DNA of 64,000 nt, taken from Vicinamibacterales bacterium. Lineage in GTDB: Bacteria > Acidobacteriota > Vicinamibacteria > Vicinamibacterales > UBA8438. Below the pieces are notes generated by a model. It had not been told where the DNA came from. It saw only the letters and a program-made list of their open reading frames with translations, and made no database searches. The stretch covers positions 10,035 to 74,034 of the forward strand of contig CAXXTG010000281.1 of the NCBI GenBank assembly GCA_963666855.2. The letters run 5' to 3'. Each line of letters opens with the position of its first letter. Position 1 is the first letter of the stretch. The translations under genes were made by a program, and so were the position numbers. Shown one piece after another: positions 9,063 to 45,095 of the stretch.

Positions 9063-9941
9063 ATGGATCTGCAACTCGACGGCAAGGTCGCCGTCATCAC
9101 CGGATCGAGCCGCGGGCTGGGGTTGGCCGGCGCGCGCTCGCTCGTGGGCGAGGGCGCCCGGGTGTGCCTCTCGGCCCGCGGCGCCGGGCGGCTGGCCGAC
9201 GCCGTGGCCGAGCTGCGCGCCGCGGCCGCCGAGCGGCGCGTGGCGGGGGCCGAACCGGGCGCCGCCGCCGGACTGGCCGGGTCGGCCGCCGAGCTTGGTG
9301 CCGCCGCCGAACCGCCCGGCGCGGCCCCCGGGGACGAAGGCGTCATCGGGATCGAGGCGGACCTGAGCACCGAGGCCGGGGTGGCCCGCGTCATCGACGG
9401 CGCGGTCGAGGCGTTCGGCGGGCTCGACATCCTCGTCAACAACGTGGGCAAGGCCGGCGGCGGAGGGATAACCGAAGCGACCGACGCCGAGTGGCGGGCG
9501 GCGCTCGACCAGACCCTGCACCCCGCGATCCGCGCGTCGCGGCTCGCGGTGCCGCACCTGCGCGCGCGGGGCGGCGGGGTCATCCTGATGATCGCCTCGA
9601 TCTGGGGCCGGGAGTCGGGCGGGCGCATGACCTACAACGCGGTCAAGGCGGCCGAGATCAGCCTCGCGAAGTCCCTCGCCGGCGAGCTCGCGGCCGACAA
9701 CATCCGGGTCAACAGCGTGGCCCCGGGCTCGATCTCCTTCCCCGGCGGCTCGTGGGCGAAGCGCCAGGCGGCCGACCCCGAGGGCATGGCCGCGTTCGTC
9801 CGGCGCGAGATCCCGTTCGGCCGGTTCGGGCGCGCCGAAGAGGTCGGCGACGTGGTAGCCTTCCTCGCCTCCCCCCGCGCGAGCTGGGTCACCGGGGCCT
9901 GCGTCACCGTCGACGGGGGCCAATCGCGGTCGCTGTTCTGA
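9063..9941 (+). CDS. SDR family oxidoreductase (FabG-like) with a low-complexity insertion
   Basis: The protein begins MDLQLDGKVAVITGSSRGLG (TGxxxGxG). NNVG, YNAVKAA (YxxxK) and PGSISFPG motifs are present. A roughly 40-aa Ala/Gly/Pro insert follows the second strand. Confidence 0.8.
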   Translation: MDLQLDGKVAVITGSSRGLGLAGARSLVGEGARVCLSARGAGRLADAVAELRAAAAERRVAGAEPGAAAGLAGSAAELGAAAEPPGAAPGDEGVIGIEADLSTEAGVARVIDGAVEAFGGLDILVNNVGKAGGGGITEATDAEWRAALDQTLHPAIRASRLAVPHLRARGGGVILMIASIWGRESGGRMTYNAVKAAEISLAKSLAGELAADNIRVNSVAPGSISFPGGSWAKRQAADPEGMAAFVRREIPFGRFGRAEEVGDVVAFLASPRASWVTGACVTVDGGQSRSLF

Positions 9942-9960
9942 CGCCGGGCGGGGGCTGAAC

Positions 9961-10113
9961 TTGACGGCGGTGTCCCACATCATCCACGTCGACCGCTGGC
10001 GGACCCGGCGGTCCGGGAATCGGGCCGCGTATCGCGTCTTCTACGCCGGTCGGCGGCGCAACCTGCAGGTCCAACGCTTCGCCACGCCCGGCACGATCGA
10101 GGACAGGATCGAT
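9961..10113 (+). pseudogene. Decayed relic of an SNF2-family helicase (motif VI region only)
   Basis: The translation HIIHVDRWRTRRSGNRAAYRVFYAGRRRNLQVQRFATPGTIEDRIDL aligns without gaps to the bacterial SNF2 pattern H(V)[24 protein letters not shown](K/R)[16 protein letters not shown]. Key residues are mutated. The relic is truncated on both sides. Confidence 0.5.
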
Positions 10114-10201
10114 CTGGGAGTCTGCGCCGTAGAACGGTGCAGACTCCTAGCAGGGTTGGTTGGGCGGCAATCGGAGCCGCAGGCGGCGATTTCCGGGCTA
10201 G
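10114..10201. repeat. 88-nt REP/MITE-like element, right inverted copy
   Basis: Contains the hairpin ggagtctgcgccgt-aga-acggtgcagactcc (14-bp stem with one G.T pair). It pairs with 8891-8978. Confidence 0.75.
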
Positions 10202-10464
10202 TGTCCCGTAACGGTGGTTCGTGGAACAATGCTGAGCGGCATTACTTCAATTTTTGCAGGCATTTGCCGCGATTCAAGACGTTCACGAACTTCACGGCCG
10301 GGACACTGGGGATTGCCGAAGTGCGGCGACTGGCCGATGATCTCGCCGGCGGCGGCCGCGGGATCGACCCCGCCGGGCTCTCCGACCACGAGCTGATCGA
10401 TCCGGTCCGCCGGACGTCATGCGCGCGAATCCACGGGCAGAGGACTGACTGACGGGACTGAACG

Positions 10465-29892: not shown

Positions 29893-30315
29893 ATGTCGCT
29901 GAATACGTATCTGACGTTCGACGGCAACTGCCGCGAGGCGTTCGAGTTCTACCGCTCGGTCTTCGGCGGGGAGTTCCAGTCGTTCCAGACCTTCGCGGAC
30001 GCGCCGCCGGACATGCCCGTGCCCGAGGCCGAGAAGGGCCGGGTGATGCACGTGTCGCTGCCCGTCGGGTCGAGCGTCCTGATGGGCAGCGACAGCGCCG
30101 AGGGGTTCGGGCCGCCGGTCGTCGTCGGCAACAACTTCTCGATCAGCATCGAGTGCGAGAGTCGGGAGCATGTCGACCGTGTGTTCGCGGCGCTGTCGGC
30201 CGGCGGCAAGGTCGTGATGCCGCTGGGGGAGACATTCTGGGGCGCGTACTTCGGGCTGTGGACCGACAAGTTCGGCATCAACTGGATGGTGAGCTACACC
30301 CTGCCGACCGAGTGA
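29893..30315 (+). CDS. VOC/glyoxalase superfamily protein (PhnB-like)
   Basis: The sequence MSLNTYLTFDGNCREAFEFYRSVFGG...MHVSL...FWGAYFGLWTDKFGINWMVSY shows the PhnB/3-demethylubiquinone methyltransferase-like fold signature. Confidence 0.8.
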   Translation: MSLNTYLTFDGNCREAFEFYRSVFGGEFQSFQTFADAPPDMPVPEAEKGRVMHVSLPVGSSVLMGSDSAEGFGPPVVVGNNFSISIECESREHVDRVFAALSAGGKVVMPLGETFWGAYFGLWTDKFGINWMVSYTLPTE

Positions 30316-30470
30316 GCCGAGCCGTCATCCCGGACGAGCGAGCCGGGAGCCGTCATCCGGACGCGTGAGCCGAAGCCGCCATTCCGGACGAATGAGCCGG
30401 GGGCGTCATTCCGGACGAATGAGCCGGAGCCGTCATCCCGGACGAGTGAGCCGGGAGCCGTCATCCCGGA
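30313..30470. repeat. Six tandem 26-27-bp units, each able to form a ccggga/tcccgg hairpin
   Basis: The unit tgagccgggagccgtcatcccggacga(g/a) repeats from the VOC stop codon to just before the RBS of the next gene. Confidence 0.85.
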
Positions 30471-34728: not shown

Positions 34729-34896
34729 CGCAGGTTCCCTCCGCATGCGCTGAATTCGTCGATCGGATTTCGTTCCCAAGTACCTCGGAGCATTGTATAC
34801 GAGATGCCGAGATTCTCGTTGACACCCATTGTCGGCGTCGGGCAACATGAGATCGCTGGTGGACGGGTGCGCCGGACGGTCGGAACTCCAGATCTC

Positions 34897-35847
34897 ATGC
34901 AAGAATCGAGCCAGGGACGGTCAGGAACCAGAACGCGGCGCACGCGCGCGGCCGGCACGCCGAGGCGTCCTGATCAACCCACGCTGTGGCGCCGCGAGCC
35001 CCCCACGTCGGTCGTCGAGCCGCCGCATCGGCTGGCTTGTGCGGACAACCTGGATTTCTTGTCCAGCATCAGGGATAAACAATGCAAGCTGGTGGTGACG
35101 TCGCCGCCGTACAACCTGGGCAAGGAGTACGAGGCGCGCGGCCGGCTGGACGCCTATCTGACGGAACAGGAACGGGTCATCCGCGAGTGCGTCCGGGTGC
35201 TGCACCCGCGGGGTTCGTTGTGCTGGCAGGTCGGCAACTATGTCGAGGGCGGGGAGATCATCCCGCTTGACGTGGTGTTGTGGCCTTTGTTCCGCGAGCT
35301 CGGACTGCTGATGCGGAACCGCATCGTCTGGACGTTCGGTCACGGGCTGCACTGCACGAAACGGCTTTCCGGCCGCTACGAAACCATCAACTGGTGGACG
35401 AAGTCCGACGACTATACGTGGAACCTGGATCCTATTCGGGTGCCGTCGAAGTATCCCAACAAGCGCTATTTTCGGGGACCCCGCGCGGGCGAGCTTTCCT
35501 GCAACCCCAAGGGGAAGAACCCGAGCGATGTATGGGCGTTCCCGAACGTCAAGAACAACCACCCGGAGAAGACCGTGCATCCGTGCCAGTTCCCGGTGGA
35601 GCTCGCCGAACGGCTGGTGCTGTCCATGACCGATGCGGGAGATACGGTGCTCGATCCCTACATGGGCGTGGGCTCGACGGCGCTGGCGACCATGAAGCAC
35701 GGTCGGATTGCCTACGGTTGCGACGTGGTGCCGGAATACGTCGAGATAGCGGTGGGCCGGGTCAGGCGGCTCCGCGTCGGAGAATTGAAGACGCGGCCGA
35801 TGAACCGCCCGATCTATGACCCGTCCCAGCCCAACGGCGGTCAGTGA
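34897..35847 (+). CDS. Beta-class N4/N6 DNA methyltransferase (SPPY type), with no cognate nuclease nearby
   Basis: Motif IV VVTSPPYNL precedes motif I DPYMGVGSTA. There is visibly more A/T at third codon positions than in neighbouring genes. Confidence 0.8.
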   Translation: MQESSQGRSGTRTRRTRAAGTPRRPDQPTLWRREPPTSVVEPPHRLACADNLDFLSSIRDKQCKLVVTSPPYNLGKEYEARGRLDAYLTEQERVIRECVRVLHPRGSLCWQVGNYVEGGEIIPLDVVLWPLFRELGLLMRNRIVWTFGHGLHCTKRLSGRYETINWWTKSDDYTWNLDPIRVPSKYPNKRYFRGPRAGELSCNPKGKNPSDVWAFPNVKNNHPEKTVHPCQFPVELAERLVLSMTDAGDTVLDPYMGVGSTALATMKHGRIAYGCDVVPEYVEIAVGRVRRLRVGELKTRPMNRPIYDPSQPNGGQ

Positions 35848-35860
35848 CGAGAATGCGGTC

Positions 35861-36469: not shown

Positions 36470-36550
36470 GATCGACCTCCCGGGCCTCCGGGGTCGGTCG
36501 CGATCCCCTCCGGACCTGTGCTACACTTGCCTAACTCATTTAGGAGAACA

Positions 36551-36892
36551 GTGCCTCCACGCGCCACGTTGCTGCCCGGAACGCTGGACGTCCTGGTCCT
36601 CAAGGCCGTCTCCCTCGGCCCCCTCCACGGGTACGGCGTGCTGCTGCGCATCGAGCAGATCACGCGGGGCGCGCTCGTCGTCGAGCAGGGCGCGCTGTAC
36701 CCGGCGCTCTATCGCCTCGAGCAACAGGGGCTGCTGGCCGCCGCGTGGGGCGTGTCGGACAACAACCGGCGCGCGAAGTTCTACCGGTTGACGCCGGCGG
36801 GCCGGCGGCGGTTGCGGGTGCAGCGCGCGAACTGGCGGCAGTTGGCCGATGCGATGGCGGCCGCGCTCGACACCCGGCGGGGCGAGGTGTGA
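36551..36892 (+). CDS. PadR family transcriptional regulator
   Basis: GTG 36551 follows AGGAG. The sequence is LDVLVLKAVSLGPLHGYGVLLRIEQITRGALVVEQGALYPALYRLEQQGLL...AKFYRLTPAGRR. Confidence 0.85.
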   Translation: MPPRATLLPGTLDVLVLKAVSLGPLHGYGVLLRIEQITRGALVVEQGALYPALYRLEQQGLLAAAWGVSDNNRRAKFYRLTPAGRRRLRVQRANWRQLADAMAAALDTRRGEV

Positions 36893-36896
36893 CGAC

Positions 36897-39637
36897 ATGT
36901 GGACCCGATTGCGGCTCCGGCTCGCCGCCCTCTTCCGACGCGCCCGGTTCGAGCACGAGCTGGACGACGAGCTGGCGTTTCACGTGCAGGCGCGCGCCGA
37001 CGAATGGGAACGCCGGGGGCTGTCGCCGACGGCGGCGCGGCGGCGGGCGCGGATCGAGTTCGGAAACGTCGAGCGCGTCAAGGAAGAGACGCGGGACGTC
37101 CGGCTCGGTCCGTGGCTCGAGCTGCTCCGGCAGGACCTCCGATACGGATTCCGCGTGCTGCGGGCCCACCGCGGTCTCACCGCCATCGGCGTCGCGTCGC
37201 TGGCCTTCGGCATGGCCGTCTGCATCTACTTTCCTCTCGCAGCTCGAAGCCGGGATCCTGCGGCCGCTGCCGGGGGCCCGCGATCCGGGCTCGCTGTTCG
37301 CCGTCGACGCACGGCTGTCCTACCCGGCCTTCGAGCGTATCCGGGAGCGGGACGACGTCGTCGAAGCGGCGGCGGCCTACCTGGGGCCGGCGCCGTTCAC
37401 CGTCGGCGTCGACCGCGGGCCGGGCGGCGGCGAACGCGTCTTCGGTCACCTCGTCTCGCCCGACTACTTCGAGGCCCTGGGCGTCGGTCCGGCGTCGGGG
37501 CGGCTCCTGGCCCCCGGGACCGATGGGGCAGGTTCGGAGCCGGCGGTCGTCGTCAGCGAACGGTTCTGGAGACGCCGGCTCGATGCCGATCCGGGCGCCG
37601 TGGGGCGGACGCTGCGGGTGAACGGCCAAAGTGTGACGCTGGCGGGCATAGCCTCGAACGGATTCCGGGGCGTGTTTCCGACGACCCCGGCGGAGATTTT
37701 CGTGCCGGTGACCGCCGGCGCCCCGCTCGCGCCGGAGCTGGCGGGCGACGTCCTGTCCGACCCGGAGGCCGAGCGGTTCCAGGTGGTCGTCCGGCTGGCG
37801 GGCGCGGTGTCGTTACCGGCGGCCGCAGCGGCGCTCGACACGGCGGCGCGGGGGCGGGACGCGCCGCGGCCCGGGGTCGGTCCCGGCCGCCGCGAGGGCC
37901 GGCGGGTGGGGCTGCTTCCGGCGGGCCGCGTCGCCCGAGTCCGGCCGGCGGAGCTGCGGCTCATGCTCGGCCTCAACGGGCTGCTCGTGGCGCTCGTGCT
38001 CTCGCTGGCCTGCGCGAACCTGGCCGGACTGCTGCTGGCGCGCGCCGGGGAGCGCCGCCGCGAGATGGCCGTCCGCTTCGCGCTGGGGGCCAGCCGCGGG
38101 CGGCTGGTCCGGCAACTGCTGACGGAGAGCGTGCTGCTGGCGTTGGGCGGCGGCGCGGCCGGGCTCCTCTTTTCCTACTGGCTGCTGCCCGCCGCCGATT
38201 CGATTCGCGAGGCGGGCCCGATCCCGTTCGAAACGGACGCGCACATCGGCCCCGCGATCTGGCTCGTCGTGGCGGCCATCGCCGTGCTGACCGGGGCGGG
38301 GCTCGGACTGGCGCCGGCCCTCGCGGCGACCCGCGGCGCGCGCGACGGCGTCGCCCGGTCCATGCAGGGGGGACCGGTGCCGTTGTTGCCCTATCGCCGG
38401 TTCGGCGTCAGGAACCTGTTCGTGACGTACCAGGTGGCGGCGGCCCTAATGCTGCTGCTCACCATCGGCCAGTTGGCGGTCGGCTACCAGCGGTTCGCCG
38501 GCCTCGATCCCGGGTTCGACACCGCCGGTCTGACGCTGTTCGTCGTCGATCCGGAGCGTGACGGCTATACGCCGGCGCAGTCCGCGGCGTTGCTCGACGG
38601 GTTGTCGGACCAGCTCTCCGCTCTTCCCGAGGTGCGGTCGGCGGCGCTGGCCGAGCGCGCCCCGTTGGGTCTCGGCGTCGCGTCCAACGTCCGCGTGTCG
38701 GCGTCGGCGTCGACGGCGGCGGTCGACGCGGCGCGCGCGTACCATTCCGTCGCGCTGGAACGCGTCGGCGTGGGCTACTTCGAGACGCTCGGCGTTTCCC
38801 TCGTCCGCGGCCGCGCCTTCACCGGGCGCGACCGCGCGGCCGGCGGCCCGGGCGGGGACGCGCGCGCGGCGCAGACCGCCGTCGTCATCAATCGGACGGC
38901 GGAGCGGCAGATCTTCGGGTCCGGCGGGGCGATCGGGCGTCGGCTGCGGGCGGACGACGACGGCGGAAGCTACGTCGTGGTCGGGGTGGTCCCGGACGTC
39001 GGGGCCGACTTCCTCGCGACGGGCACAACGGCGAGAGCGTTCGCGCCGATCTCGGCGGCGGGCCTCGGCCGCGCCTCGGGCCGGGGGGCGACGGTGCTGG
39101 TCGGCGGCATGTCCGACGGCGGCGTGATGGCCGCGGTCCGTCGCGAGCTGACGCGGACTCATCCGCGGCTGACGATCTTCGACGCCCGCACGATGGACGA
39201 GCATCTGGAATGGTTCGAACGCACGATCCGGGTCGGTGTCGGCCTGTACGCGGGGCTGAGCCTGTTCGGTCTCGTCCTCGCCACGATCGGCCTGACCGGC
39301 GTCACCGCCTATGCCGTCGCCCGCCGGCGCGTCGAGATCGGCGTCCGGTTGGCGCTCGGGGCCCGGCGTCCCCACGTGCTGTGGCTCGTCCTCCGGGAGG
39401 CCGCGTTCCTGGTCGTCGCGGGTGCGCTTCTCGGCGCGGCGGGGGCGTTGGCGGTGACGCGTGCGCTCTCGGCGCTCGCCGCCGACCTCGCGCAGGTTCT
39501 GGCTACCGTCATCGGCGATCCGGTGCTGATCGTCGGCGGGGCCGGCGGTGCTCGTGGCGGCGGCGCTGGTCGCCTGCGCGGTGCCCGCGTGGCGGTCGGT
39601 ACGAATCGACCCGGCGTCGACCTTGCGGGCGGAGTAG
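36897..39637 (+). pseudogene. Third ADOP/MacB-like permease, reading frame broken twice (about 37225-37235 and at the G-run 39538-39541)
   Basis: The N-terminus MWTRLRLRLAALFRRARFEHELDDELAFH is in frame 0, and the body (FLSQLEAGILRPLPGARDPGSL... through two FtsX modules) is in frame 1. The C-terminus PAVLVAAALVACAVPAWRSVRIDPASTLRAE* is in a third frame. Confidence 0.6.
39517..39637 (+). repeat. Direct repeat, left copy (3' end of the ADOP permease gene)
   Basis: This is the same ~120 nt as 42001-42120, with about 5 differences including one extra G. Confidence 0.85.
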
Positions 39638-39691
39638 CCCGCGAGCAGCCAAACGCCGTCGCCCGGTCGTTGACCAACGCCGAGGTCTACG

Positions 39692-40253
39692 GTGGCCCAG
39701 ACGCCGCACCGGTGCTGGTGCCCGATGTGCTGGGCGGCCGACGACGAGCGGTACGAGCGGAAGGTCTGGTGGCTCGCCTTGGTCGAGGCGTGTCATGTCC
39801 ACGGTTGCCTCCCGCACTGCCGCTGCCCGACGTGCGGCCGTCTTCAGACTGACGCTGCCCCGGGCCGTGCGCATCCACGTGTGCTCGTTCTGCGGGCACC
39901 GATCTCCATTCGATCTCCATTCGTCCGGGTCCGTCCCCCTGGAGGGTCCGTCCGCCGAGCGGCTGCTGTGGTACGCGTGCGAGGGTGCCCGGCTGGTTCA
40001 CGCCGGCGAGGCGACCGCGCTCGCGGGGCTCGACGAGCGGCATCGAATCACGGAGGCGTACGGGCGTCTGGCCGAGCTGGCGCGCGGGCGGAATCTTCCC
40101 GCCGTCGAGCGGTTCTTCGCCGACGAGGTCCATCGGGCCGTCGGCTCGAAGATCCAGGCGTTGCTCAGCGCGCTCTGGCGCCTGCGTGTCACTGTTCTGC
40201 AGCTGTTCTCGCCCGAGGTTCGGGCGATGGTGGGGGAGACGCGTAACGCTTGA
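39692..40253 (+). pseudogene. TniQ-like zinc-ribbon protein, N-terminally truncated and frameshifted (near 39835-39860)
   Basis: HRCWCPMCWAADDERYERKVWWLALVEACHVHGCLPHCRCPTCGR in frame 2 continues as RLTLPRAVRIHVCSFCGHRSPFDL...RLLWYACEG... in frame 0. This C..C/W..L....C..H/CP.CG pattern is typical of TniQ/TnsD-family proteins. Confidence 0.4.
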
Positions 40254-40294
40254 CCTCCTCGTACCGACGTCGATCGGTCCTTCCCCCACGCACC

Positions 40295-41287
40295 TCAGCG
40301 GTCCGTCCCGGAACGGCCGCTCTTCGCCGTTGCGTCGTTGAGCTGATGCCCTCCAGCGGGTCGTCCGGCCCCCCTAACGACAACCTCGGTCTCCTCGTCG
40401 CTCGGTACCGTTCGGTGCCCCGTCGGTCCGTCGGTGCCGCCGGGTTCGGATCCGCGTCCGCCGGTTTCCCCCAGCTTGGAGCGGGTCTGTCGAACCAGGA
40501 CTGGCACCTTGGTTCGAGCGTGCTCCAAAACCCGCTCTCCGGTCTCTCTCGTGTCCCGCCACGTTTTTTCGGGCGCCCCGTCCGTTGGGTTTTCGTACTG
40601 GTAGATTCCAGCGTACAACGAGAGTTTCCTCAGCTGTTCCTTCTCCCGGTCTCCCGGTATTCGCTCGCCGTCGCGCTCCACGTGATCCCAGAGGGCGTTG
40701 AGGTCATGCGTGTGGACGATTTGCCGCCCTTGCGCTATCGTCAGCGCTTTGAGGGCTTGTTCCATCGCGAACTGTAGATCTTCGCAGCGGTCCGCCGGGT
40801 GGGCGTCGGGTTGGTTCGCCCTCGTCCATTTCCGTTCCGCCCGCGTGAGGAACTCGACCGCGCGGTCCGGTTGGTACAGCGTCGATTGCGGCGTCATCGT
40901 CCAGTCTCGCTTCAACCCCCGCCCGGTTTCGATCGCGGTGAAACCCGGCCGCGTATAGATCGTCCGGCCCGTTTCCAGTGCGGCCCCGCGGGGATTCCCG
41001 GCGTACTCTCTCGCCTCTTCGGCCTCCGTCCTCGTGCTGACGAACGCGTCGATGTCGCGTTGTGCTCCTTCATCCCACCAACGGTGATGGTTGCGGGCGC
41101 CCGCACGCGCTCGATCGGTGATGACCAGCAGATCGAGATCGCTCTGGGCCGTCATCTCACCCCGCACGGCTGAGCCGAAGAGGATGATTTGATCGGGATT
41201 CAACCTCGATACGACGACTTCGACAGCCGCCTGGAGGTGTCCCGCGCTGGGCGCCGTGCGGCTCGCGTTAAGCATCTGCATGGCCAT
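40295..41287 (-). CDS. Single-chain nucleotidyltransferase (MNT-like) plus HEPN domain protein
   Basis: The N-terminal ILFGSAVRGEMTAQSDLDLLV is the GSx10-13DxD NTase motif. The C-terminal helical domain AMEQALKALTIAQGRQIVHTHDLNALW carries an Rx5H (HEPN Rx4-6H) motif. A ~70-aa disordered tail follows. Confidence 0.65.
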   Translation of the reverse strand: MAMQMLNASRTAPSAGHLQAAVEVVVSRLNPDQIILFGSAVRGEMTAQSDLDLLVITDRARAGARNHHRWWDEGAQRDIDAFVSTRTEAEEAREYAGNPRGAALETGRTIYTRPGFTAIETGRGLKRDWTMTPQSTLYQPDRAVEFLTRAERKWTRANQPDAHPADRCEDLQFAMEQALKALTIAQGRQIVHTHDLNALWDHVERDGERIPGDREKEQLRKLSLYAGIYQYENPTDGAPEKTWRDTRETGERVLEHARTKVPVLVRQTRSKLGETGGRGSEPGGTDGPTGHRTVPSDEETEVVVRGAGRPAGGHQLNDATAKSGRSGTDR

Positions 41288-41464
41288 TCTACTTCACACC
41301 CGGACTCGCCGTAGTCGAGTAGGCCGGGCTGGCGACCCCGGCGCCCGCGCTGCTCTTGGAGCCGCCACCCTCTGGGACCGCCTCCCAGGCCGTGTCGCGG
41401 CCGGATCCCCGATCGGGGCTCGATGAGTAGGTCGTTGCGGCTGTCGTCTCGCGTGGAGCTCTGT

Positions 41465-41986
41465 TTACCCTGTTTCCGGCGCGTGCCACACCGCCTCGAC
41501 GAACGCCGGGTCGCCCTGTCCGTCGAGGTCGACCAACACGATTGCCCCGTCCGGCGCGAGCCATGCGTCCGTGTACGCGCCCCTCCCGCAGCACAACCCG
41601 GTGCCCAGCCAATCCCGGCATAGCCAGTCCTGATAGCGGGCGGCCGGCAGGCCGTCCGTTCTCCGCAGCGTCTCTGGCCGCCACGGTAGCCGGCCTATGT
41701 CGAGCTTGTCGAAACCCGGCATGTTCTCTCCGTTCACCGTCGGGAACGCGTTGACCCTCACCCTCATCCCATACCCTGGTGCGTGGACGTACTGCGCGTC
41801 GGGGCTGTTCGGCTCCGCTCGCTCGAATCCGATCAGTCCGGCGTCCAGTCTGTGGAGCAGTCCCCTTAGCATCCGCAGCGGGCGTTTCTTCATCAAGCCG
41901 GTGCTGTGCAGGGCCTTCACCCGCAGCCCGTCGTGGCACTTGAACCGGACGACGTCGTCGGCGGTCATCGGCCGCACGCCTGTCAT
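41465..41986 (-). CDS. Hypothetical protein (173 aa), family not recognised
   Basis: ATG 41986 lies at the edge of the right direct repeat. The composition looks protein-like (MTGVRPMTADDVVRFKCHDGLRVKALHSTGLMKKRPL...YTDAWLAPDGAIVLVDLDGQGDP). Confidence 0.4.
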   Translation of the reverse strand: MTGVRPMTADDVVRFKCHDGLRVKALHSTGLMKKRPLRMLRGLLHRLDAGLIGFERAEPNSPDAQYVHAPGYGMRVRVNAFPTVNGENMPGFDKLDIGRLPWRPETLRRTDGLPAARYQDWLCRDWLGTGLCCGRGAYTDAWLAPDGAIVLVDLDGQGDPAFVEAVWHAPETG

Positions 41987-42000
41987 GTACCGATCAGCGG

Positions 42001-42120
42001 GATCCGGTGCTGATCGTCGGCGGGCCGGCGGTGCTCGTGGCGGCGGCGCTGGTCGCCTGCGCGGTGCCCGCGTGGCGGTCGCTGCGAATCGACCCCGCGT
42101 CGACCTTGCGGTCGGAGTAG
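42001..42120 (+). repeat. Direct repeat, right copy (orphan 3' fragment of the ADOP permease gene)
   Basis: Encodes DPVLIVGGPAVLVAAALVACAVPAWRSLRIDPASTLRSE* in one frame. Confidence 0.85.
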
Positions 42121-42216
42121 CGGAACGCCCGGTTGCGGGGCCGGCGCCTGCGCGCCTCGGCGATCGGCTGGCGCCCTCCCGGCGCGGTGCAACCCGGTTC
42201 CGCCACGGGCCGCTAC

Positions 42217-42975
42217 CTACGGAAACCGCCAGCGCAGCAGGCGCCGTTCCAGCCGCGCGGCGAGGGCGAACAGCACCAGCACGAACGACATGATGATGAC
42301 GATGAGGGCGAGGGTCAGGGCCGCGTTGTAGGTGCTCTGGGCGAACTGGAGCAGGTAGCCGAGGCCGCGGCTCGAGGCGACGAACTCGCCCACCACGGCG
42401 CCGGTGAAGGCGAACCCCACCGCGACCTTGAAGTTGCCCAGCACCCAGGCGGTGACCGACGGGACGTAGACCTCGCGGACGAGGACGCGGCGCCCGCCGC
42501 CGAGGGTGCGGACGCGCTCGACGAGGCGCCGGTCCACCTCCTTGATGCCGTTGAAGACGGCGAAGAAGATGAGCACCGCCACGAGGATGGTGGCGAGGGC
42601 GAGCTTCGACGCCAGCCCGATGCCGAGCCAGATGACGAAGAGCGGGGCGAGGATGACGCGGGGGATGGCGTTGAGGAGGATCATCACCGGCTCGAGCAGC
42701 TCGGCGAGCCGCGGCAGCAGGGCGGCCGCGAACCCGAGCACGATGCCGATGGCGAGGCCGGCGGCGAGGCCGGCGATGGCCGCGGTGGCGGTGGCTCCGA
42801 GGTGCGGCCAGAGCTCGCCGCCGGCGAGGTCGAGCATCACCCCGCCGACCGCCGACGGGGGCGGCGCGTAGAAGGGGTCGAGCCAGCCGACCCGGGAGAG
42901 CAGCTCCCACACCGCGAGCAGCGCCATCAGCGCGGTGGTGCGCCGGAAGGCGGGGCCGACGGTGATTGCCGTCAT
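42217..42975 (-). CDS. ABC transporter permease (NitT/TauT family)
   Basis: A 6-TM BPD-transporter pattern is present, and the gene overlaps the ATPase gene. Confidence 0.8.
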   Translation of the reverse strand: MTAITVGPAFRRTTALMALLAVWELLSRVGWLDPFYAPPPSAVGGVMLDLAGGELWPHLGATATAAIAGLAAGLAIGIVLGFAAALLPRLAELLEPVMILLNAIPRVILAPLFVIWLGIGLASKLALATILVAVLIFFAVFNGIKEVDRRLVERVRTLGGGRRVLVREVYVPSVTAWVLGNFKVAVGFAFTGAVVGEFVASSRGLGYLLQFAQSTYNAALTLALIVIIMSFVLVLFALAARLERRLLRWRFP

Positions 42976-43781
42976 CGATCCGCCTCATCGGCAGCGGACG
43001 GCGGGGCCTCCGCCGTCAGGTCGTTCCACAGCGTCCGCAGCAGGGGCCCGAACGCGGGATGGCGCTTCGCGTCGAGGACGTCCCGCGGCCTCGGGATGTC
43101 GACGGCGTGCCGCGCCCGCATCGCCGCCCGGGGGCCGTGGCCGAGCACCGCGACCGCGTCCGACGCGCAGATCGCCTCCTCGAGGTCGTGGGTGACGAGC
43201 AGCACCGTGAGGCGGTCGCGCTCGACCCAGTCCAGCAGCTCCTGGGTGATGCGGGTGCGGACGATGGCGTCGAGGGCGGCGAACGGCTCGTCCATGAGGA
43301 GCAGCCTCGGGCGCAGGGCCAGCACCTGGGCGATGGCCACCCGCTTCCGCTGGCCGCCGGAGAGCTGGGCGGGGAAGCGGTCGCCGTAGCCGGCGAGGCC
43401 CAGCGTCGCCAGCCAGTGGTCGGCCCGGGCGTCGGCGTCGGCGGGGGGGACGTCGCGGATGCGCAGGCCGAGGGCCACGTTCTGCCGCGCCGTGCGCCAC
43501 GGCAGGAGCGCGTCGTCCTGGAACAGGAACCCGATGTCGGGCAGGGCCGCGCCGAGGTCGACGGTGCCCCGCAGCGGCTCGAGGAGGCCCGTCACCACCC
43601 GCAGGATGCTGGTCTTGCCCGAGCCGGACGGGCCGATGAGGCTGACGAACTGGCCGGCCCCCACGTCGAGGTCGATGCCTTCGATGATCGGCGGACCGCC
43701 GAAGCCGACGGACAGGCCGCGGATGCGCAGCAGGGTTCCGGGGGCCACCGGCCGCGCCGGGGGATCAGCCGGCGAGGGCAT
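42972..43781 (-). CDS. ABC transporter ATP-binding protein (NitT/TauT family)
   Basis: The start is ATG 43781. Walker A GPSGSGKTS, signature LSGGQRKRVAIAQ and Walker B LLLMDEPFAALD are present. Confidence 0.85.
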   Translation of the reverse strand: MPSPADPPARPVAPGTLLRIRGLSVGFGGPPIIEGIDLDVGAGQFVSLIGPSGSGKTSILRVVTGLLEPLRGTVDLGAALPDIGFLFQDDALLPWRTARQNVALGLRIRDVPPADADARADHWLATLGLAGYGDRFPAQLSGGQRKRVAIAQVLALRPRLLLMDEPFAALDAIVRTRITQELLDWVERDRLTVLLVTHDLEEAICASDAVAVLGHGPRAAMRARHAVDIPRPRDVLDAKRHPAFGPLLRTLWNDLTAEAPPSAADEADR

Positions 43782-44874
43782 CCGCGTCGACCAGGGTGGC
43801 GAGATCGACCTGTCCCGGCTCGAGAAGCCCGGCGATCTCCTGGGCCCTGACCACCCGTCCCGCGGCGTCGAGATCGACGGTGACCCGCTCCGGATACAGC
43901 GACAGCCGGTAGCGCTCGACGATCGCCTCGAGCTGGTCGAGATCGCCCCCGGCGACGAGGGCGGCGGGGAGGGCGGCCACGATGTCGCCGGGAGGCAGGG
44001 TCCGGGTGTCGGCGAGGCCGCGTTCCAGCGCGGTTGCCAGGCGGCGTATCTCGTCCAGGCGTTGGTCGCGCTCGGCCGCCCGCACCGCCACCCCCATGAA
44101 CTCGTAGGCGCCGCCGACATGCCGGCGGGCCTCGTCGAGCTCCATGAAGTTCACGAGCTCGCGCCCCCCCGCCTCGGTGATCAGGGTCAGGGCCGGCTCC
44201 TGCACCATGGCCGCATCGAGCTGCCCGATGCGCAGCGCGTCGAAGAGGTTGGTGCCGACGGTGGCGAACTGCACGCTCGAGGCGTCGGCGCCGGCCTGAT
44301 CGAGGAGGAACAGCAGCAACGCGTGGTCGGCGTTGCCGAGGGCGGAGACGCCGACGGTGCGGCCCTCGAGGTCGGAGACGGCGTCGATCTCGGCGCTGCG
44401 GTCGGGGGCGACGGCGAGGGCGAAGAGCGGCAGCCGGCCCGTCGACGCCACCCGGCGGATCCGGGCGCCGTTGGCCGCCGCCTGCAGGGCGACGTCGAAC
44501 GAGCTGCCCGCGTAGTCGACGGCGCCCCCGACCAGCGCCTGGACCGCCGCGTTGCCCCCGCGCGTGTAGATCAGCTCGACGTCGAACCCCTGGTCGGCGA
44601 AGTGCCCCCGCACCCGCGTCACCTCGTAGGGCACGACGCACAGGAGCTGCCCGCAGAACGCGAGGCTGAGCGGCGTCGCCCCGTCCCGCGGGCGCGATCC
44701 GCACCCGCCGCTGACGGCGATGACGGCGCCCGCCCCGAGCAGCGTCTTCAGGGCGGTGCGCCGGTCCCAGTCCGCCCCGGGATCGGGCCGGTCGCCGCCG
44801 GCCCGGCCGGGACCGGCGGCCGGATCCGACACGACGCCGAGCAGGTTCGGGTTGGTGGCCTCGCAGCAGCCCAT
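43765..44874 (-). CDS. ABC substrate-binding lipoprotein (NMT1/THI5-like, SsuA/TauA type) with a Tat-like signal
   Basis: WDRRTALKTLLGAGAVIAVSGGCGS combines a twin-arginine motif with a lipobox. The start is ATG 44874, or TTG 44931. Confidence 0.75.
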   Translation of the reverse strand: MGCCEATNPNLLGVVSDPAAGPGRAGGDRPDPGADWDRRTALKTLLGAGAVIAVSGGCGSRPRDGATPLSLAFCGQLLCVVPYEVTRVRGHFADQGFDVELIYTRGGNAAVQALVGGAVDYAGSSFDVALQAAANGARIRRVASTGRLPLFALAVAPDRSAEIDAVSDLEGRTVGVSALGNADHALLLFLLDQAGADASSVQFATVGTNLFDALRIGQLDAAMVQEPALTLITEAGGRELVNFMELDEARRHVGGAYEFMGVAVRAAERDQRLDEIRRLATALERGLADTRTLPPGDIVAALPAALVAGGDLDQLEAIVERYRLSLYPERVTVDLDAAGRVVRAQEIAGLLEPGQVDLATLVDADALAG

Positions 44875-44930
44875 GATCGCGTTCTCCGGCCGGTCGGGAC
44901 GTCGACGGAAACGACGCTGCCGCCGCGTCA

Positions 44931-45095
44931 AACGCCCCGACCGCAGAAACGGGCTGCGCCGGGGTCGAGGCGGCGGCCTCGTTGCCGCGCGCCGAACGCC
45001 CCGACCGCACGGGCTGCGCCGGGGTCGAGGCGGCGGCCTCGTTGCCGCGCGCCGAACGGGCTGCTGGGCCGGGGCGAAGGCGGCGGCCTCGTGTC
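44931..45095. repeat. Tandem 60-64-bp repeat, about 2.7 copies
   Basis: The unit aacgccccgaccgca(gaaa)cgggctgcgccggggtcgaggcggcggcctcgttgccgcgcgccg occurs at 44931 and 44995, with a partial copy at 45055. Confidence 0.8.

Follow-up and report, generated by a model that had tools for sequence, protein, structure and literature searches.

The subject of this analysis is an islet of lower GC content at the 3′ end of a gene for an ADOP permease in a Vicinamibacterales bacterium. Positions are those of the window, the whole stretch of 64,000 nucleotides (nt) that was analysed. The islet lies between two direct repeats of about 120 nt, both of which carry the end of the permease gene, and is followed by the genes of an ABC importer. 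The features of the locus, from left to right, are:

36518..36892, plus strand: PadR-family regulator, the upstream partner of the permease (Pfam PadR, 1.5e-19).
36897..39637, plus strand: ADOP permease with duplicated MacB_PCD and FtsX domains, a pseudogene here (Pfam MacB_PCD 4.8e-29, FtsX 2.8e-24).
39517..39638, plus strand: proximal repeat (c1), attached to the gene; resident-like to ~39590, then with a foreign 'V/A' tail.
39638..39702, plus strand: segment after the stop codon (the '+65' segment) that travels with the V/A tail, delimited by comparison with scaffolds L004, L005 and L053.
39692..40253, plus strand: TniQ relic, 5′-truncated at the left junction and frameshifted near 39865 (Pfam TniQ).
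40295..41287, minus strand: fused MNT (nucleotidyltransferase)-HEPN gene, intact, 330 aa (Pfam NTP_transf_2 4.7e-9, HEPN 1.8e-8).
41465..42004, minus strand: 5′-truncated gene of a rare family (the '173-aa ORF', whose open reading frame from an internal ATG covers 41465-41986), delimited by homologue alignments.
41991..42016, no strand: right junction (J); GATC(C) at 42001-42005 contains the switch between cargo gene and permease sequence.
42001..42121, plus strand: distal repeat (c2), the orphaned resident 3′ end of the permease gene with an 'L/S' tail, identified by homology to scaffold L057.
42121..42216, no strand: native spacer between the convergent permease and ABC importer genes, with partial homology to the L057 spacer.
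42217..44931, minus strand: NitT/TauT-type ABC importer, comprising permease, ATPase and NMT1 binding protein (Pfam).

Alignment of the direct repeats (39517-39638 and 42001-42121) gave four substitutions, at 39599, 39601, 39613 and 39629, and one 1-nt indel, GGGG (39538-39541) against GGG (42022-42024). Their identity is 96%, in line with the roughly five differences counted by eye in an earlier sequence-only reading of this DNA. Both copies encode the last ~40 permease codons, DPVLIVGGPAVLVAAALVACAVPAWRS(V/L)RIDPASTLR(A/S)E, a C-terminus typical of ADOP/FtsX proteins, and both stop at TAG, as that reading had stated. Its claim that the extra G breaks the frame of the gene-attached copy is borne out by the translated frames. 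The copies do not differ at all over a 60-nt core (39539-39598), and their similarity breaks off sharply on either side of both. A 120-nt repeat at 96% identity cannot have arisen by chance. The 2.36 kb between the repeats has a GC content of 0.673 compared to 0.745-0.749 in the flanks, a modest dip given that 1-kb windows over the whole 64 kb range from 0.64 to 0.80. GC content at third codon positions is 0.75 in the MNT-HEPN gene and 0.85 in the 173-aa ORF, compared to 0.91-0.98 in neighbouring genes, which agrees with the higher A/T at third positions reported before. No second copy of the islet was found within the window, and no tRNA or Rfam match in or near it; promoter and terminator scans of the islet region were uninformative.

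The cargo named in the sequence-only reading, a TniQ-like relic, a fused MNT-HEPN gene and an ORF of 173 aa, was recovered, with Pfam agreeing for the first two and no family assigned to the third. The TniQ relic matches profile positions 104-141/142 (E=1e-5, 26.7 bits compared to a cut-off of 27). Once its frame is repaired, 140 residues align with annotated TniQ proteins of tniA-tniB-tniQ modules (tblastn) at ~30% identity, corresponding to ~residues 124-262 of 293; these relatives follow tniA and tniB on Agrobacterium plasmids. A scan of a metagenome collection with the repaired relic was without match. TniQ links the islet to Tn5053/Tn402 and Tn7-like transposons (tniA/tnsB-tniB/tnsC-tniQ). 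Tn7-like elements carry defence-type cargo behind TniQ; comparably, the relic is oriented as the upstream gene, lies tens of nt past its stop codon and has defence-type cargo behind it. Unlike in these transposons, only a TniQ fragment is present, with no TnsB/TniA transposase or TnsC/TniB AAA+ regulator beside it, and the islet ends show neither terminal inverted repeats with transposase-binding sites nor a 5-bp target duplication. Profile searches of the islet and of the main ORFs between 28 and 54 kb detected neither an integrase nor a transposase domain, in line with what had been noted from the letters alone. The earlier objection that 120 nt is too long for a transposon target-site duplication also holds: a Tn7-type duplication is likewise rejected, the repeat being unlike the transposition footprint of Tn7/Tn5053-like elements.

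The MNT-HEPN gene is the sole complete gene of the islet. Its translation contains the motifs GSx10DxD (MNT) and Rx5H (HEPN), as in type VII HepT/MntA (HEPN/MNT) systems. Unlike those two-gene modules, it joins both domains in one 330-aa polypeptide with a low-complexity tail and scores far below the family cut-offs (NCBIfam MntA 27.7 bits compared to 60; PADLOC PDC-S09 weak). An identical protein is encoded on scaffold L002 and the same gene is present on L004; a viral-contig scan and a plasmid search were without match, as was a PDB sequence search. Of the cargo, it alone could plausibly function, as a putative self-contained toxin-antitoxin (type VII-like) or defence protein. For the 173-aa ORF, only 4 homologues were found among 1.84 billion representatives, PHROGs, PADLOC, NCBIfam and Pfam gave no match, and exact-protein look-ups of this ORF and of the PNPOx upstream of PadR returned no record. 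We take the islet to be the remains of a dead tniQ-type transposon, a piece in which TniQ and the rare gene are truncated and the MNT-HEPN gene is intact.

Related loci were sought among metagenome scaffolds with the frame-repaired permease; L054-56 derive from a complete 6.87-Mb genome. L057 (93.8% nt identity) contains PNPOx, PadR, an intact permease (913 aa), a 133-nt spacer and the convergent ABC permease, and is an empty site. This is the arrangement that the sequence-only reading had proposed to look for, a permease gene that ends once and is followed by the ABC importer. L057 4175-4330 matches window 41999-42151 and L057 4429-4544 matches 42216-42331. The tail and flank of L057 match c2 together with 42121-42151 at 89%, a homology that stops precisely at GG|GATCCGG. 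The claim that the islet is an insertion is supported by this empty site and by the finding that its arrangement is not common to the relatives. The L/S tail of c2 (CTG..CCC..GTC) also occurs in the intact proteins P0001 and P0032. The V/A tail of c1 and the next 65 nt match L005, L053 and the second copy in L004. The c2 copy is therefore the original gene end. The c1 tail, the +65 segment and the cargo arrived together, the switch from resident-like to foreign allele in c1 falling between 39590 and 39599. The first ~43-52 nt of the +65 segment are common to L005 and L053, and all 65 nt to both L004 copies.

At the left end of L057 (1-600), ~7 nt of microhomology, CATCGCC, connect the ABC ATPase (window 43129) with the inside of PNPOx (35945), which implies a tandem duplication or circular form of the segment from PNPOx and PadR to the permease and ABC permease in that strain.

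A sister variant of the occupied site was found on L004, which is 99% identical over 37924-41562 and contains the same islet up to 41562. There follow 115 AT-rich nt, then the last 478 nt of the permease gene for a second time, in frame and with the same 65 post-stop nt, and then different DNA that includes a SecA2-like gene (L004 4513-5700, 1.7e-101). The tails are reversed relative to the window, the proximal copy being of the L/S and the distal copy of the V/A type. Gene conversion or independent events have therefore swapped the alleles between the copies.

These scaffolds also bear on the rival explanation of assembly mis-phasing, in which the chromosome is empty at this site and the 120-nt segment also occurs in a small circle or tandem array of the islet, threaded in once by the assembler through the 60-nt identity. 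The copies are indeed identical over 39539-39598, so that short k-mers could not phase the tails. The population is strain-heterogeneous, scaffolds break at the boundaries (L001 ends at 42216, L002 spans only 40102-41383), and L057 itself has a duplication- or circle-type junction. However, independent contigs from other samples (L004, L005, L053) link the permease body to the +65 segment and then to cargo, the variants GGGG and GGG are linked over 25 nt or less to the permease body and to J, respectively, and each copy has a distinct tail contiguous with its own flank. We consider such mis-phasing highly improbable.

Other relatives show that different DNA follows, interrupts or replaces the permease. 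First, in L003 (96.7%) an island of 8.8 kb or more, headed by a type IIG restriction-modification enzyme, truncates the permease at window 39401. Second, in L005 and L053 (93%), which differ in context upstream of PadR, the permease and ~43-52 shared post-stop nt are followed by a MobQ relaxase/RepB primase element starting at ~+43, demonstrating that the site is used by real mobile elements. Third, an outer-membrane efflux gene follows the permease in L050-52, a 78% orthologue. Lastly, in L054-56 the flanking core genes are ~95% identical, and an ISL3 transposase, a truncated SecY/SecY2-like gene and a small PadR-like gene (L054 10759-13643) stand in place of the whole of 36471-42216. L054 has no ADOP permease at all, homology resuming exactly at the stop of the ABC permease, 42217. 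At least five slot configurations occur among the relatives. The permease tail thus marks the edge of a hypervariable slot, which lies between PNPOx and the ABC importer and in which defence and mobile genes abound. With a SecY-like gene in L054 and a SecA2-like gene in L004, accessory-Sec-type genes recur at the slot. As far as the L003, L004 and L005 islands are visible, they show no recombinase.

The gene tail itself is mosaic. The last ~100 nt of the permease in L005 and L053 are 95% and 93% identical, respectively, to L050 of the 78% group, compared to 81-85% upstream (Fisher p=2e-7 and 1e-6). Recombination in the tail of this gene is common.

The right junction was defined with the homologues of the 173-aa ORF, which are 213-220 aa long and share an invariant DPxD. 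In the window this motif is encoded at 41993-42004, upstream of the ATG of the ORF (GAT CCC GCT GAT CGG TAC ATG, DPADRYM, 41984-42004). Past the GATC at 42001-42004 the reading frame is permease antisense and homology to the full-length relatives ends, ~25-33 N-terminal residues being missing with permease antisense in their place. Since homology continues upstream of the ATG up to GATC and is then lost, the gene is 5′-truncated at J. By this alignment J lies inside a gene and is not the end of an element. At the other side of the islet, the left junction (~39702) truncates TniQ at ~residue 117-124 of ~293; at the equivalent position in the second L004 copy, unrelated DNA follows. J forms GGATCC at 42000-42005 and lies between the arms of a perfect 8-nt inverted repeat (CGATCAGC, 41991-98; GCTGATCG, 42009-16). 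Both partners at J carry GATC(C), a 4-5-nt microhomology, the permease reading C|GATCCGG at 39517. The heptamer GATCCGG occurs five times in the 2741-nt permease gene. The orphan copy of L004 also starts exactly at GATCCGG (equivalent to 39225).

A ~17-25-nt motif (CCCNGACGATGTATCCA) is common to L004 4226-4270 and L005 5192-5216, ~85-100 nt past the permease stop in two otherwise different cargo regions, and a similar CCCAGAC precedes the TniQ junction of the window. The motif may be a remnant of an older insertion site.

The shared GATC raises the question of whether a restriction nuclease made the joint. A GATC-specific enzyme, MboI/Sau3AI-like or with a longer GATCCGG-type site, would have cut the DNA; a fragment from permease GATC to cargo GATC would then have been circularised and inserted by a single homologous crossover, or ligated directly into the cut chromosome. 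This would explain why both native partners at J have GATC at the joint, why the palindromic joint has the cargo gene attached in reverse orientation, and why the L004 orphan copy begins exactly at GATCCGG; the chance that both breakpoints fall on the 17 GATC starts of the gene is ~4e-5. Restriction-modification genes are also present around the slot (an orphan methyltransferase at 34948-35847 and the type IIG enzyme in L003). We nonetheless regard this capture as rather improbable. The islet contains many internal GATC sites, so that partial cleavage would be needed, no GATC-specific nuclease was identified, the junctions at 39401, 41562 and +65 lack GATC, and the argument depends on two junctions.

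The islet is most likely a known kind of event, an accessory islet built by recombination at a hypervariable slot in the course of ordinary strain-level genome turnover. The simplest route, to which we give about an even chance of being correct, combines one homologous crossover with one illegitimate joint, in a manner resembling homology-facilitated illegitimate recombination (HFIR) or Campbell-type integration. In a donor strain, a transposon fragment would have lain just downstream of the same PadR-ADOP permease pair. It would have entered the locus between permease and ABC importer by recombination, with the permease gene itself as the homology. A crossover inside the permease would have formed the first joint, and the second, illegitimate joint would have fused the GATC(C) of the cargo gene to GATCCGG at permease position 39517. 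The donor end, c1 with 65 nt of donor downstream DNA, would thereby have been placed on the gene, and the resident end, c2, stranded beside the ABC importer. Since the illegitimate joint precedes the resident stop codon by 120 nt, the gene end now exists twice. Either a linear fragment, as in HFIR, or a circle or plasmid could have served as the intermediate; a circle or plasmid would have integrated by a single crossover and been trimmed later. The insertion, the resident copy, both truncations and the microhomology junction are shown by the sequences; the order of events and the enzymes involved we infer from sequence. A crossover plus an illegitimate joint accounts for the truncated end genes, the missing recombinase, repeats of 120 and 478 nt, and the mosaic tails. 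The L004 duplicate, which starts at another GATCCGG and has swapped alleles and another flank, fits independent recombination or gene conversion rather than one fixed att site.

As summarised in PMC6382021, which cites de Vries & Wackernagel 2002, HFIR has been described for Acinetobacter baylyi, Streptococcus pneumoniae and Pseudomonas stutzeri, with joints documented at 3-10 bp of microhomology. Compared with HFIR as outlined there, the islet is alike in having one junction in homologous anchor DNA, here the permease, with which c1 is continuous, and the other at a short microhomology, here GATC(C) at 42001-42005. The foreign DNA is likewise an arbitrary fragment with truncated end genes, and no dedicated recombinase is needed. 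It differs from that outline in that the joint lies inside the anchor gene, so that 120 nt are duplicated instead of recipient DNA being deleted, in that the joint recurs at GATCCGG in a sister strain, and in that the islet is deduced solely from the natural sequence of an uncultured lineage.

Several points weigh against this crossover-and-joint route. Both known orphan copies begin at one heptamer, GATCCGG, which microhomology alone does not predict and which hinted at a sequence-specific step. The 8-nt inverted repeat around J resembles a recombinase core site, and only ~1% of window positions fall in the spacer of such a repeat. J is present in this window only and is covered by no independent contig. 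The donor arrangement, in which a V/A-type permease would be followed by the transposon and the cargo gene, both at full length, was not observed, and no natural competence or other route of DNA uptake is known in this uncultured lineage.

Some of these features would be expected of a site-specific integrative element, in the style of e14 or phage 21 in icd, that used an attB in the 3′ end of the permease gene and later lost its integrase and most of its genes. The sequence-only reading had preferred an element of this type, carrying a surrogate 3′ end of its target and bounded by att-like repeats. That the islet is an insertion and that it brought in a gene 3′ end stands; that the repeats are att sites of a self-contained element finds little support. 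In favour of an integrase are the direct repeats of the gene end together with the empty site, and the perfect 8-nt inverted repeat flanking a GGATCCGG-containing spacer at J. The relaxase/primase element of L005 and L053, inserted at +43 with the last ~100 nt replaced from 39535-39546, also has an attL-like appearance, and the extra G of c1 coincides with the L005 switch point. There is precedent in e14, which leaves a 163-bp pseudo-icd′ duplicate (PMC6379469). As in e14 and phage 21, a direct repeat of ~120-165 nt covers the last codons, and the gene is completed by the copy from the element, which leaves the original end orphaned (PMC6379469). Unlike the islet, e14 and phage 21 encode an integrase and have constant att arms. 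Here, J lies inside a truncated coding sequence rather than in an att arm, TniQ is truncated at the other junction, and the repeat is 120 nt in the window and 478 nt in L004 with the same cargo. Moreover, the two junctions share no related sequence to the left of GATCCGG, no recombinase was found in any of the four island fragments seen, and the L003 island joins at 39401 without a surrogate end. We therefore judge an integrase-driven origin unlikely.

One feature is left unexplained, the recurrent GATCCGG boundary. Combined with the portable gene tail, it could reflect an integrase-free spread of defence cassettes, in which a restriction-type nuclease or an unrecognised recombinase cuts at a specific site, the piece of this common, dispensable permease gene acts as a homology handle for host recombination between strains, and the gene end is rebuilt repeatedly. 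We regard this as decidedly improbable, and the islet would represent a new kind of system only if the recurrent boundary proves enzymatic. Taken as an accessory islet built by recombination, the locus is a clean natural case from uncultured soil-type bacteria that shows how a hypervariable slot acquires small accessory or defence islets at its edge. With an empty site, an occupied site and a sister variant at hand, the resident and incoming ends and the exact illegitimate joint can be told apart. It also cautions that a duplicated gene end need not be an integrase att site.

The permease carries a second +1 frameshift that had not been noted before, an extra C at ~37233 (TTT C CTC), in addition to the extra G at 39538-39541. 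The repaired protein is 91-99% identical to the intact orthologues P0001, P0002, P0003 and P0032, none of which has either frameshift. Assembly indel noise was considered as their source and rejected, the other coding regions of the window being almost indel-free when compared with the 95%-identical genome L054. Because the frameshifts are missing in the orthologues and the other coding regions are essentially indel-free against L054, the permease is a genuine pseudogene. It is dead in this strain, where it has decayed since the insertion. Carrying two frameshifts, it makes a surrogate gene end useless here. Decay was also seen in other strains: the L053 orthologue is split independently into 279 + 636 aa, and that of L003 is cut at 835 aa. 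The PadR-permease pair is kept in L003, L005, L050, L053 and L057.

Scans for further cases were made in two ways. A genome-collection scan with the permease C-terminus found only paralogues at ≤46% identity, and self-comparison of those 44 paralogue loci revealed tandem paralogues and no analogous 3′-end duplicates. A degenerate DNA pattern for the permease tail was without match in the metagenome collection. In L058, a 7.39-Mb relative genome, a 690-nt orthologous permease 3′ fragment (9671-10363) lies beside a divergently oriented PadR-ADOP pair. This orphan fragment (P0245) was considered as a third example and discarded as a decayed pseudogene without a sharp GATC boundary. Several other short FtsX-only fragments (~75% identity) occur on long contigs.

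On the right, the spacer at 42121-42216 is strongly structured (predicted -56 kcal/mol), and the ABC importer is a conserved core flank, syntenic and 95% identical in the complete genome L054, with the homology edge exactly at 42217. On the left, an orphan type II N6/N4 DNA methyltransferase gene occupies 34948-35847 (Pfam PF01555 2e-49, PADLOC MTase_II 5e-81). The surrounding stretch (34763-35848, GC 0.64) is missing from the 95%-identical L054 and is therefore a separate small indel two genes upstream of the permease. Intergenic tandem repeats at 30309-30466 (27 nt × 5.9) and 44918-45058 (60 nt × 2.3) differ in copy number from L054.

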